Part shown: one piece after another, positions 23,381 through 27,220 of the stretch
Position numbering within the stretch: position 1 is the first letter of the stretch
How the letters are laid out: the number at the start of each line of letters is the position of its first letter
Assembly (NCBI RefSeq): GCF_016463295.1
Contig: NZ_JAEMRO010000003.1
Coordinates: forward strand, 5,474 to 69,473
From: Brevundimonas sp.
GTDB lineage: Bacteria > Pseudomonadota > Alphaproteobacteria > Caulobacterales > Caulobacteraceae
DNA: 64,000 nt
Reading direction: 5' to 3'
Program-made: the position numbers and the translations under genes
Notes under the pieces: model-generated
What the model was told of the DNA's origin: nothing
Databases searched by the model: none
What the model saw: the letters and a program-made list of their open reading frames with translations, nothing else

Positions 23381-23434
23381 CTGTTCACTGGCGTCCGCGC
23401 CTGAATTTTCACGGCTTTTTTGAGAACCGTTCGC

Positions 23435-23908
23435 ATGTCAAGCTCCCCCCTGACGGGCGACCCCAGCAACGACCCTTCTGACGATCAGACCGGCCGCCTG
23501 GTGATCCAGCCCAATGGCCGGCCGCGTCCGCTGTCGCCGCACCTGCAGGTGTGGCGCTGGCACGTGACCATGACCGCCTCCATCCTGTTCCGCTTCACCA
23601 TCGGGGCGGCCAGCGTCGGCGCGGTGTTTCTGGTGGCCTGGCTGGCGGCGGTGGCCTTCGGACCGGAGGCTTTCGACGGCGCGGCTGCCTTCGCCGGTTC
23701 GCCTTTGGGTCTGATCGTCGGTTTCGGCCTGACGGTGGTGCTGTTCTCCCTGCTGCTGAACGGCGGGCGCCACCTGATCAACGACACGGGCAATGGCCTT
23801 CAGATCAAGCCTGCCGACCTGCTGTCCAATATCGCGGTCTGGGGCCCGGTGCCGCTGGCGGTGCTGTTCTGGGTCGTCCTGTTCTCCACCGGGAGGGTGT
23901 CGCTGTGA
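23435..23908 (+). CDS. sdhC: Succinate dehydrogenase cytochrome b556 subunit (heme-ligand His absent)
   Basis: RPLSPHLQVWRW, S-I-L-F-R, NGGRHL; first gene of sdhCDAB. Confidence 0.93.
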   Translation: MSSSPLTGDPSNDPSDDQTGRLVIQPNGRPRPLSPHLQVWRWHVTMTASILFRFTIGAASVGAVFLVAWLAAVAFGPEAFDGAAAFAGSPLGLIVGFGLTVVLFSLLLNGGRHLINDTGNGLQIKPADLLSNIAVWGPVPLAVLFWVVLFSTGRVSL

Positions 23909-24309
23909 GCGGTCGGGCTACATACAGAAACGGCGTCAAGGTTTCCGAGCACCACGGCGCCGGCGAATGGGCGACCGAGCGCGTGGCCCTGCTGCTGCTG
24001 ATGCCGCTGGGCGTCTGGGTCGCGTCGAGCGCATTTACCCTGGCCGGGGCCGACTACGATACCGTCATGGCCTGGTTCGCCAGCCCGCTGAACGCCATCC
24101 TTGCGGCGGTGACGGCCGTGGTCTTCTTCGGCTTCGCCAGCCTGGCGTGGAAGGTCATCATCGAGGACTACATCCACAAGCCCGGCACCAAGGGCTTGCT
24201 GATCGGCCTGTTGAATCTGATCTGTTTCGCGCTGGCCGCCGCCAGCGTCTTCTTCATCGTGCGGGTGGCGCTGGGTTCAGCGCCGCTGCCGGCTGGTTTC
24301 GGAGTCTGA
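23905..24309 (+). CDS. sdhD: Succinate dehydrogenase hydrophobic anchor subunit (heme-ligand His absent)
   Basis: GTG start overlapping the sdhC stop (GTGA); three TM helices; VIIEDYIH motif. Confidence 0.9.
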
Positions 24310-24313
24310 CCGC

Positions 24314-26098
24314 GTGACCGCATACGAATTCGTCGATCACGAATATGACGTCGTCGTCCTGGGCGCCGGGGGCTCGGGCCTGCGCGCCGCGCTGGGGGCC
24401 GCGCAGCAAGGTCTGAAGGTCGCCTGCGTCACCAAGGTCTTCCCGACCCGCTCGCACACCGTGGCGGCCCAGGGTGGTATCTCGGCCAGCCTCGGCAACA
24501 TGGGCGAGGACTCGTGGCAATGGCACATGTACGACACCGTCAAGGGGTCGGACTGGCTGGGCGATCAGGACGCCATCGAATACCTGGTCCGCAACGCGCC
24601 CAAGGCGGTCTATGAGCTGGAACACTGGGGTGTGCCGTTCAGCCGGACCGATGAAGGCAAGATCTATCAGCGCGCCTTCGGCGGCATGACCCGCAACTTC
24701 GGCGAAGGCCCGGTGCAGCGCACCTGTGCTGCCGCCGACCGCACCGGCCACGCCATCCTGCACACTTTGTACGGCCAGTCGGTGCGACGCGAGGTCGAGT
24801 TCTTCGTCGAATATTTTGGCCTGGACCTGATCATGCAGGACGGTGTCTGCACCGGCCTGACGGCGCTGAAACTGGACGACGGCACCCTTCACCGGTTCCG
24901 CGCCAAGCTGGTGATCCTGGCCACAGGCGGATACGGCCGCGCCTATTTCAGCGCCACCAGCGCCCATACCTGCACGGGCGACGGCAATGCCATGGTGCTG
25001 CGCGCGGGCCTGCCGTTGCAGGACATGGAGTTCGTCCAGTTCCACCCGACCGGCATCTATGGTGCAGGTTGCCTGATCACGGAAGGCGCGCGCGGCGAGG
25101 GCGGCTATCTGACCAACTCCGAGGGCGAGCGCTTCATGGAGCGCTATGCGCCCACTGTGAAGGACCTGGCTCCGCGTGACATGGTTTCGCGCTCCATGAC
25201 CATCGAAATCCGCGAGGGGCGCGGCGTGGGCCCGAACAAGGACCACATCTTCCTGCACCTGGATCACCTCGATCCGAAGGTGCTGCACGAGCGCCTGCCG
25301 GGCATTTCGGAAAGCGCCAAGATCTTTGCGGGCGTGGATGTGACCAAAGCCCCGATCCCGGTCCTGCCGACCGTCCACTACAATATGGGCGGCATCCCCA
25401 CGAACTATCACGGCGAGGTCCTGACCAAGGTCGGCGACAATGCCGACACCGTCGTGCCGGGCCTGATGGCCGTAGGCGAGGCGGCCTGTGTGTCCGTACA
25501 CGGTGCGAACCGTCTGGGCTCCAACAGCCTGACCGATCTGGTCGTGTTCGGCCGCGCGGCCGGTCTGCGCGCCGGGGAGGTCGTGGACAAGGCGTCTCGC
25601 GTGCCCGATGCCCCGGCCTCCACGACGGATGCCCATCTGGCCCGCCTTGATCGTTTCCGCCACGCCAATGGTTCGACCCCGACCGCCAAGCTGCGCATCG
25701 AGATGCAGCGCGCCATGCAGTCCGACGCCGCCGTGTTCCGCACCGGCAAGACGCTGGAAGAAGGCACCGCCAAGCTGCGCGCAATCCATGCGCAGGGGGC
25801 TGACATCAAGACCACTGACCGCGGTCTGATCTGGAACACCGACCTGGTCGAGACGCTGGAATACGACAACCTGATCGATCAGGCCCTGGTCACGATAGAG
25901 AGCGCGCTGAACCGCACGGAATCGCGCGGGGCTCATGCGCGTGAAGACTATCCGGATCGTGACGACGTCAACTGGATGAAGCATACCCTGTCCTGGAAGG
26001 TCCCGGGCGATGCGGTGAAGATCGACTACCGTCCGGTCCACAACTACACGATGTCGGACGACATCGCCTACATCGAGCCCAAGACAAGGGTGTACTGA
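24314..26098 (+). CDS. sdhA: Succinate dehydrogenase flavoprotein
   Basis: [16 protein letters not shown] (covalent FAD His), [23 protein letters not shown]. Confidence 0.98.
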
Positions 26099-26100
26099 AG

Positions 26101-26898
26101 ATGGTTCAGCTTACTCTCCCCCGGGGGTCGAAGCCCTCGACCGGCAAGGTTCACAAGGCCCCCGCCGGTGCCAAGAACGTCAAGACCTACAAGGTCTATC
26201 GCTACGACCCCGAGGTCGATGCCGACCCACGCTGGGATACGTTCGAGGTCTCCAGCGACGACCACGGCCCCATGCTGCTGGACGCCCTGATCCACATCAA
26301 GAACGAGATCGACCCGACGCTGGCGTTTCGCCGGTCGTGCCGCGAGGGCATCTGCGGTTCGTGCTCGATGAACATCGACGGGCGCAACACCCTGGCCTGC
26401 ACCAAGGGCTGGGATGAATGTTCGTCGCACAACATCTCCATCGCCCCCCTGCCGCACCAGCCCGTTGTCAAGGATCTGGTGACGGACCTGACGCTGTTCT
26501 ACGCCCAGTACGATAGCATCCAGCCTTATCTCCAGTCCGACGAGCCGGATCCGGAGAAGGAGCGTATCCAGCTGCCCGAGGACAGGGCCAAGCTGGACGG
26601 GCTGTACGAATGCATCCTGTGCGCCTGCTGCTCGACCTCCTGCCCCAGCTACTGGTGGAACCAGACGGAATATCTGGGCCCGGCGGCCCTGCTTCAGTCC
26701 TACCGCTGGATCGCCGACAGCCGCGATGATGCCACGGACAAGCGGCTGGACGACCTTGAGGACCCGTTCAAACTGTACCGCTGCCACACCATCATGAACT
26801 GCGCCCAGGTCTGCCCCAAGGGCCTGAACCCCGCCAAGGCCATCGCCGAAACCAAGAAGCTGATGGTCGCCCCGGGTCGGAAGAAGCAGGCGGCCTGA
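26101..26898 (+). CDS. sdhB: Succinate dehydrogenase iron-sulfur subunit
   Basis: [34 protein letters not shown]. Confidence 0.98.
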
Positions 26899-26899
26899 G

Positions 26900-27220
26900 T
26901 TGGCGAAGGTTACCTACATCGAGCACGACGGCCGCGAGCATGTCGTGGAGGTCAAGACCGGGCTTTCCATCATGGAGGGCGCGATCCGGAACAATGTGCC
27001 CGGTATCGACGCCGACTGCGGCGGAGCCTGTGCCTGCGCGACCTGTCATGTCTATGTGGACGAGGCCTTCGCTGCCGAGACGGGACGGCCTTCGGCGATG
27101 GAGGAGTCCATGCTGGACTTCGCCGAAAATGTTCAGCCGAACAGTCGCCTGTCCTGTCAGATCCGGGTCAGGGACGAGCTGGACGGGCTGATTGTGCGCC
27201 TGCCCGAGAACCAGCACTGA
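26900..27220 (+). CDS. 2Fe-2S ferredoxin (adrenodoxin/putidaredoxin type)
   Basis: [11 protein letters not shown] and SRLSCQ. TTG start 1 nt after the sdhB stop. Confidence 0.93.

Follow-up and report, generated by a model that had tools for sequence, protein, structure and literature searches.

A Brevundimonas succinate dehydrogenase anchor without the two heme b ligands: a candidate natural heme-free complex II

The window analyzed here is a stretch of 64,000 nucleotides from a Brevundimonas sp. genome (NCBI RefSeq assembly GCF_016463295.1, contig NZ_JAEMRO010000003.1, positions 5,474 to 69,473), and the system in question is its sdhCDAB operon, which encodes complex II, the succinate:quinone oxidoreductase (SQR). 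Heme b of complex II is conserved and redox-active and in the canonical enzyme sits off the electron pathway, and its role is a long-standing open question. Here, we report that the two membrane anchor subunits of the window enzyme, SdhC and SdhD, carry Leu and Phe on the positions of the two axial heme ligands, that bulky residues have entered the surrounding heme pocket, and that the quinone site is kept. We consider it probable that the operon encodes a functional heme-free SQR derived from the type C (E. coli/mitochondrial) anchor. Anchors without the two ligand histidines are called His-less below.

Lost ligands and the heme pocket

The two anchor genes are the following.

sdhC, 23435..23908, + strand: large anchor subunit, 157 amino acids, His-less allele (open reading frame, translation, family models, alignment to 1NEK_C/1ZOY_C)
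sdhD, 23905..24309, + strand: small anchor subunit, 134 amino acids, His-less allele (open reading frame, family models, profile alignment to 1NEK_D)

A sequence-only reading of this DNA had named the SdhC and SdhD substitutions, and these are correct residue for residue: SdhC has the motif SILFR, in which the Phe52 codon is 23588–23590, and the motif LLLNGGRH, in which Leu106 (codon 23750–23752) stands 7 residues ahead of His113; SdhD has Phe77 (codon 24133–24135) 12 residues ahead of Tyr89, and Trp82 is encoded at 24148–24150. Window SdhC 29–119 gives a gap-free HMMER alignment with E. coli 1NEK chain C 7–97, in which Ser49 corresponds to Ser27, Phe52 to His30, Arg53 to Arg31, Leu106 to His84, and His113 to His91, and the pig 1ZOY chain C segment MYHTWNGIRH is placed over LFSLLLNGGRH of the window. 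A single-sequence search with window SdhD found no solved relative; the structural mapping of SdhD is that of a profile of 24 Caulobacteraceae SdhD sequences against E. coli 1NEK chain D, whose consensus slwhmklglrviieDY is aligned to ILIHAWIGMWQVLTDY of chain D, so that Phe77 corresponds to His71, Arg26 to Arg20, Leu29 to Ala23, and Asp88-Tyr89 to Asp82-Tyr83. The alternative that a histidine has shifted instead of being lost does not hold, since the gap-free 1NEK/1ZOY alignments put Leu and Phe exactly on the ligand positions. By alignment to solved structures, both axial ligands are thus gone together, as had been proposed, and His30 has gone with them; in E. coli, SdhC His30 packs on the heme ring and His91 binds the distal heme propionate (PMC3290573).

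For comparison, 37 His-less SdhCD sequences were set against 27 other (canonical) Brevundimonas sequences, and the residues of most interest are listed here.

SdhC Phe52, 23588..23590, + strand: E. coli His30 position; Phe in 37/37 His-less, His, Asn, Thr, or Val in the other Brevundimonas
SdhC Ile56, 23600..23602, + strand: E. coli Gly34 position, a helical turn away from His30; Ile in 37/37 His-less, Gly in 27/27 canonical
SdhC Leu106, 23750..23752, + strand: E. coli His84, axial ligand; Phe in 32 and Leu in 5 of 37 His-less, His in 27/27 canonical
SdhC Asn109, 23759..23761, + strand: E. coli Val87 position, heme contact; Asn in 37/37 His-less, Gly, Ala, or Ser in canonical
SdhC His113, 23771..23773, + strand: E. 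coli His91 position; retained, invariant in all groups
SdhD Leu29, 23989..23991, + strand: E. coli Ala23 position, heme contact; Leu in 36/37 His-less, Ser or Ala in canonical
SdhD Phe77, 24133..24135, + strand: E. coli His71, axial ligand; Phe in 21 and Tyr in 16 of 37 His-less, His in 27/27 canonical
SdhD Ala81-Trp82, 24145..24150, + strand: E. coli Gly75-Met76; the His-less clade is fixed for Ala in place of Gly and for Trp in place of Leu

The two Brevundimonas groups have no residue in common at 22 positions of the alignment. With E. coli numbering, those of SdhC are His30 to Phe, Gly34 to Ile, 37 Leu to Ala, 80 Ala to Val, 83 Tyr/Leu to Ser, His84 to Phe/Leu, 86 Ala/Thr to Leu, 87 Gly/Ala/Ser to Asn, 89 Val/Ile to Ala/Gly, 94 Trp to Asn, and also 118 and 121; those of SdhD are 18, 22, 23 Ser to Leu, 35 Trp to Ser/Ala, 68 Ser/Thr to Phe, 70 Trp to Gly/Leu, His71 to Phe/Tyr, Gly75 to Ala, 76 Leu to Trp, and 97 to Asn. 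The E. coli side chains that face the heme within 5 Å are those of C-His30, Thr37, Phe38, Val85, and Val87 and of D-Val19 and Ala23 (PMC3290573), and together with the two axial ligands these seven residues make up a heme-contact set of nine positions. Fixed differences occupy 6 of the 9 (C30, C37, C84, C87, D23, and D71) versus 16 of the 218 other positions (Fisher one-sided p = 2.9e-5, uncorrected for phylogeny), and most of the other fixed changes are within one helical turn of a ligand. This enrichment supports the earlier proposal that bulky residues came into the heme pocket alongside ligand loss. The net effect, as judged from the alignment, appears to be that small residues making room for the porphyrin become large hydrophobic ones, and a few newly gained Asn and Ser residues could link the helices.

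Function of the complex and occupancy of the former pocket

In the heme-free SQR that we favor, electrons would pass from succinate to flavin adenine dinucleotide (FAD) and through the [2Fe-2S], [4Fe-4S], and [3Fe-4S] clusters to ubiquinone at an unchanged proximal site, which would be built by SdhC Ser49/Arg53, SdhD Asp88/Tyr89, and SdhB Trp/His. The heme space in the four-helix core would be taken by side chains of SdhC (His30 to Phe, Gly34 to Ile, His84 to Leu/Phe, and Ala86 to Leu) and of SdhD (Ala23 to Leu, His71 to Phe/Tyr, Gly75 to Ala, and Leu76 to Trp), with newly gained Asn and Ser residues available for inter-helix hydrogen bonds, and the activity would be expected to equal that of the canonical enzyme.

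Several points weigh against this reading. That heme is absent from the complex is what we infer from sequence only; the pocket-filling argument draws on E. coli contact lists and helix periodicity; and the enrichment given above is without phylogenetic correction. The residues that bond the heme propionates in E. coli are retained, namely, SdhC Arg31 and His91 and the SdhD Lys six residues before Tyr83, all conserved in the His-less set, the SdhD Arg20 position (Arg in 25 and Lys in 12 of the His-less sequences), and SdhB His207, which fits a bound heme; several of these residues also build the quinone site. Maklashina and coworkers reportedly found in 2001 that E. coli SQR mutants in a single axial ligand can retain heme. 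It is thus conceivable that heme b is still bound in a non-canonical way, i.e., by SdhC His113 after a shift toward the cytoplasmic side, as a five-coordinate or Tyr-ligated heme in those anchors that have Tyr at SdhD position 77, or weakly and sub-stoichiometrically, and the invariance of His113 and the presence of Tyr, a possible ligand, at the His71 position in 16 of the 37 His-less SdhD sequences agree with this. However, both ligands and His30 are gone together here, with Phe and Leu as the commonest replacements; the changes Gly34 to Ile, Gly75 to Ala, Leu76 to Trp, and Ala23 to Leu add bulk on the heme face; and the helices of the 37 His-less anchors contain no new conserved His, Met, or Cys. 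In yeast, a His-to-Tyr change excludes heme, as seen by spectra and by cryogenic electron microscopy (cryo-EM) (PMC12508127, PMC13066397). On balance, a retained heme seems unlikely to us.

The former pocket may also not have simply collapsed and may instead accommodate a non-protein occupant, for example a second quinone, the tail of a lipid, or some unidentified cofactor. A similar occupant has been suggested for E. coli quinol:fumarate reductase (QFR), in which density where the heme would sit has not been assigned (PMC10238741). Moreover, hand arithmetic with standard residue volumes puts the side-chain volume added by the fixed changes below that of heme, and three Trp are lost at fixed positions. 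Against this stand the lack of any sequence feature indicating a specific ligand and the precedent of yeast, which compensates by side chains, hydrogen bonds, and a conserved phospholipid only (PMC12508127, PMC13066397), and we regard such an occupant as rather improbable.

The remaining question is whether the anchor works at all. The four genes form a compact operon (23435–26898) in which neighbors overlap or are 2–5 nucleotides apart, and the sdhD start codon is a GTG within the GTGA overlap with the sdhC stop. The genes of the two catalytic subunits are as follows.

sdhA, 24314..26098, + strand: canonical flavoprotein; TIGR01816 match
sdhB, 26101..26898, + strand: canonical iron-sulfur subunit; NF004616 match

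All four products exceed the curated cut-offs of their own families: SdhC scores 74.9 bits on TIGR02970 (cut-off 52.3) and 66 bits on PF01127, SdhD 57.7 bits on TIGR02968 (cut-off 41.8) and 35.9 bits on PF01127, SdhA 962 bits on TIGR01816 sdhA_forward (cut-off 727), which is the succinate-oxidizing type, and SdhB 370 bits on NF004616 (cut-off 228). Fumarate-reductase flavoprotein models score far under their cut-offs for window SdhA, and an anchor of the type D QFR (FrdC/FrdD) was ruled out, as a whole-Pfam scan (E <= 0.01) gave PF01127 only for both anchors. The covalent-FAD histidine motif is readable in the SdhA translation, and that of SdhB has the three Cys motifs together with CPSYWWN and RCHTIMNC, which hold the equivalents of E. 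coli Trp164 and His207. The window enzyme thus has the operon, the two Sdh_cyt anchors, the quinone site, and the FAD and Fe-S motifs of a type C SQR; what it does not have is the bis-His heme b ligation of SdhC His84 and SdhD His71, replaced by Leu106 and Phe77.

The quinone-site Ser, Arg, and Tyr and the SdhA FAD-His and SdhB cluster and quinone motifs had been read as intact, and so they are; SdhC Ser49/Arg53 and SdhD Asp88/Tyr89 are moreover invariant in 37/37 His-less sequences. A canonical sdhCD elsewhere would have offered a way around the ligand loss, but none was found: in a search of the whole window genome (2.74 Mb, 95.6% complete) there was no other above-threshold PF01127 pair and no second full SdhA, and what was left over were two sub-threshold PF01127 matches inside long unrelated open reading frames and one NadB-like SdhA relative. 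In the His-less clade, the pairwise ratio of nonsynonymous to synonymous substitution (dN/dS) is 0.39 in sdhC and 0.46 in sdhD, compared with 0.43 and 0.25, respectively, in the other Brevundimonas; the His-less anchor is under purifying selection, with some relaxation in SdhD. A degenerating, non-functional anchor, with succinate oxidized elsewhere, has only the missing ligands in its favor; it is hard to square with the sole sdhCD and SdhA of the genome, with dN/dS <1 and quinone-site residues invariant in 37 diverse sequences, and with an allele present in 147 species, in single copy in each, and we hold it to be very improbable. These same observations support, at the level of sequence, the earlier claim that the enzyme is functional. 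A general heme deficiency was likewise rejected: ferrochelatase and cytochrome b are present in the window genome, so the organism makes and uses heme.

A [2Fe-2S] ferredoxin gene (window 26900–27220) begins 1 nucleotide past the sdhB stop. It is kept in His-less and canonical Brevundimonas and in the genera g2, g17, and g26 and was not found in the Caulobacter sample; a tie of this gene to heme-ligand loss was rejected, as both allele classes have it, and so do other genera.

Distribution and history of the His-less anchor

The trait is not special to the window genome but is the majority allele of the genus Brevundimonas. Among the best 120 matches each for SdhC and SdhD in a 5.8-billion-protein database, all lack the histidines, so the ligand loss is not a sequencing accident; these homologues are at least 69% identical, and the organism-named ones are almost all Brevundimonas. 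A DNA pattern encoding the His-less SdhD signature A-W-K-V-[IV]-x-E-D-Y, for which the reversed-pattern control gave 0 matches, occurs in 147 of 276 species-representative Brevundimonas genomes, once in each (130 of the 218 high-quality genomes), and the canonical signature H-x3-G-x2-V-[IV]-[IV]-[DE]-D-Y occurs in 102 of the 276; the two lists, compared by hand, share no genome. Named His-less genomes include B. vesicularis (with type strain NBRC 12165), B. intermedia, B. bullata, B. huaxiensis, B. kwangchunensis, and B. lutea; both histidines are kept in B. denitrificans, B. aurifodinae, a B. vancanneytii metagenome-assembled genome, and Peiella.

The His-less SdhCD sequences form a single gene-tree clade with a Shimodaira–Hasegawa-like approximate likelihood ratio test (SH-aLRT) value of 100, and of 92 after removal of the 24 fixed columns and their neighbors (56 trait columns). 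When 27 genomes are placed on an RpoB tree, the nine with His-less anchors stand in at least five places among the canonical ones, and His-less species as one vertical subclade are rejected by this tree (approximately unbiased (AU) test, p = 6e-5). The SdhA+SdhB tree tracks the species pattern and not the allele class, with a His-less grouping rejected (AU p = 0.011), and the SdhA N terminus is too conserved to resolve vertical inheritance; the trimmed SdhCD data, in turn, reject the RpoB clade (p = 0.005). By sliding-window identity, the window operon is a mosaic: the sdhC 5' end (23432–23562) is 82% identical to canonical B. denitrificans versus 48–74% to the His-less B. vesicularis and B. 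kwangchunensis, the segment ~23600–24280 is 73–86% identical to His-less alleles versus 52–71% to canonical ones, and sdhA is about equally identical to both classes (roughly 80–97%). Apparent recombination breakpoints lie at ~23560–23600 and ~24280: outside them, the sdhC 5' end and sdhA are similar to canonical species close by, and between them, the sdhC core and sdhD are similar to the His-less alleles of more distant species.

Since SdhCD is one clade, the RpoB and SdhAB trees scatter its carriers, and the window sdhC is mosaic, the anchor allele appears to have been moved by recombination. The data are most simply read as a single origin of the His-less anchor core followed by spread through interspecies homologous recombination; convergence or parallel evolution as the source of the SdhCD clade, and a long-lived sorting of two ancestral copies, both seem less likely. 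An allele born once would thus have moved between Brevundimonas species through exchange of the anchor core (~23600–24280), and heme-type and heme-free anchors would be alternative alleles in one genus. A search for a plasmid vehicle gave no plasmid match.

Upstream of this core, SdhC carries an N-terminal extension of ~25–30 residues (MSSSPLTGDPSNDPSDDQTGR..., window 23435–23530) that is typical of Brevundimonas and tracks the species tree and not the anchor allele class; Caulobacter SdhC (135 amino acids) is without it. The extension is translated, as judged from a third-codon variability of 0.90 versus 0.56 and 0.58 at the other positions. The SdhC N-terminal motif PLSPH reads PMSPF, with its His lost, in part of the His-less clade, i.e., B. 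bullata and relatives (L069, L077, L078, L091, L093, L097, L098, and L101).

An alignment of SdhC and SdhD across Caulobacteraceae (79 genomes, 24 GTDB genera), which had been proposed as a check, places the His-less state in Brevundimonas, alongside the canonical one, and independent losses of ligands in Caulobacter, g12, and g26.

Caulobacter (g27), 7/10 genomes: SdhC Gly34 to Leu/Val, His84 to Asn/Thr, Gly88 to Ile/Thr/Ala/Val, and His91 to Gln; SdhD His71 kept, Gly75 to Ala, and Lys77 to Gln
Genus g12 (L029, L134–L140), 5/8 genomes: SdhC His84 to Tyr; SdhD Ala23 position to Trp, and Gly75 to Ala/Val in 4/5
Genus g26, 1/1 genome (L028): SdhC Gly34 to Ile, His84 to Leu, and His91 to Arg; SdhD Arg20 to Gln, His71 to Tyr, and Gly75 to Ala

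The affected Caulobacter records are labeled C. vibrioides, C. segnis, C. flavus, C. zeae, and C. endophyticus, and most Caulobacter SdhC sequences (L036, L125–L133; P0243–P0300, P0397) have Asn at His84, Gln at His91, and Leu, Val, or Ile at Gly34; in this model genus, heme was probably lost a second time and independently. The moves that recur over separate lineages are Gly34 to Ile/Leu/Val, Gly75 to Ala/Val/Gln, and ligand to Asn/Tyr/Leu, and because the Gly34 and Gly75 changes recur in lineages that lose the ligands separately, we argue that they compensate for the missing heme. Beyond the family, His84 is kept in 111 of 125 representatives (50% identity clusters covering this column), and the only full-length exceptions that are neither of Brevundimonas type nor of Caulobacter type have Gln (P0534) or Lys (P0542) at His84, of which the Lys could still ligate heme. 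It may be, and we advance this tentatively, that heme-type and heme-free anchors are alternative recombining alleles under ecological or balancing selection, that heme b was discarded at least four times in Caulobacteraceae, and that a family-specific feature makes heme dispensable or costly.

What the loss might bring is a separate matter. The sequence-only reading had offered iron sparing as a motive, and the sdhC start is adjoined by the following site.

Fur-box-like palindrome TTGAGAACCGTTCGCAT, 23420..23436, no strand assigned: adjoins the sdhC start and ends inside its ATG

We derived a consensus from the C. crescentus Fur boxes given in PMC2724300, to which the site has one mismatch; it occurs once in the window versus 0.18 expected by chance, and Brevundimonas with either allele, His-less or canonical, keep it ahead of sdhC. 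It is similar to the sdhC Fur box footprinted in C. crescentus, which lies ~100 nucleotides upstream of the start and activates transcription (PMC2724300). The putative window site stands beside the start codon, with no Shine-Dalgarno sequence there, which suggests a mode of iron control that would differ from that of C. crescentus. Iron sparing seems a weak motive, since of the roughly 10 iron atoms of the complex 1 belongs to heme, and since the Fur-box-like site is common to both allele classes. Effects on reactive oxygen species or on stability, or a neutral loss in a permissive family background, are possible.

Significance and comparison with known complex II systems

Neither yeast nor a mutant of E. 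coli needs heme b, and Brevundimonas offers a bacterial natural experiment with built-in controls: within one culturable genus, a heme-type or a ligand-less anchor stands beside near-identical SdhA and SdhB (about 86–95% identity), and Caulobacter, in which the SdhC ligand seems to have been lost independently, is genetically tractable. The Brevundimonas allele pair could reveal what the heme is for, the candidates being enzyme stability, assembly, the reverse (fumarate reductase) reaction, and the suppression of reactive oxygen species. If the two anchors are indeed alternative alleles, Caulobacteraceae would be a natural system for settling the function of the complex II heme. In public records and annotation models, these products are named "cytochrome b556 subunit", probably a misnomer in over half of Brevundimonas and in much of Caulobacter. 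We found no report of a bacterial natural heme-free type C complex, or on the heme of Brevundimonas or Caulobacter SQR, in a literature search that left most subscription journals outside.

The window complex shares with E. coli SdhCDAB (1NEK) and mitochondrial complex II (1ZOY) the sdhCDAB operon, two three-helix PF01127 anchors, the proximal quinone residues, a covalent-FAD "forward" SdhA, and three Fe-S clusters; it differs from them in that His84, His71, and His30 are replaced and the small Gly34, Gly75, and Ala23 have become larger residues. E. coli FrdCD likewise has two anchor subunits and no heme, but belongs to another sequence family. E. coli SdhCDAB engineered to be heme-free is still active and allows growth on succinate (Tran et al. 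2007, as described in PMC3290573). That variant resembles the Brevundimonas anchor in having ligand substitutions and an assembled active enzyme, as ours would be, but it is a laboratory mutant without compensating pocket changes, whereas the His-less allele has ~20 further fixed changes. The variant of Tran and coworkers is also said to be less stable.

Natural heme-free complexes of the type C lineage have been documented in S. cerevisiae (Sdh3/Sdh4; cryo-EM 2025–2026), Tetrahymena, and Perkinsus, the latter two being divergent. The yeast enzyme lacks heme by nature: Tyr occupies the ligand position of SdhD, the core is more hydrophobic, and extra hydrogen bonds join the subunits (PMC12508127, PMC13066397). 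At the sequence level, the Brevundimonas anchor falls with this yeast-like heme-free subgroup, in that the quinone site is kept, the ligands are replaced, and the pocket would be closed as judged from E. coli contacts; in both, the type C fold and its quinone site go with a more hydrophobic core, and the ligand position of SdhD is taken by an aromatic side chain, which is Tyr in yeast and either Tyr or Phe in Brevundimonas. Heme-independent activity is demonstrated in yeast only. Yeast keeps the SdhC-side His, which forms a hydrogen bond to the Tyr, whereas Brevundimonas loses both ligands; in addition, the Brevundimonas case is bacterial and coexists with a heme-type allele in one genus, with which it has seemingly been exchanged by recombination. 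What would be new is thus a bacterial case in which both ligands are lost and in which heme-type and heme-free anchors are exchangeable alleles within a single genus.

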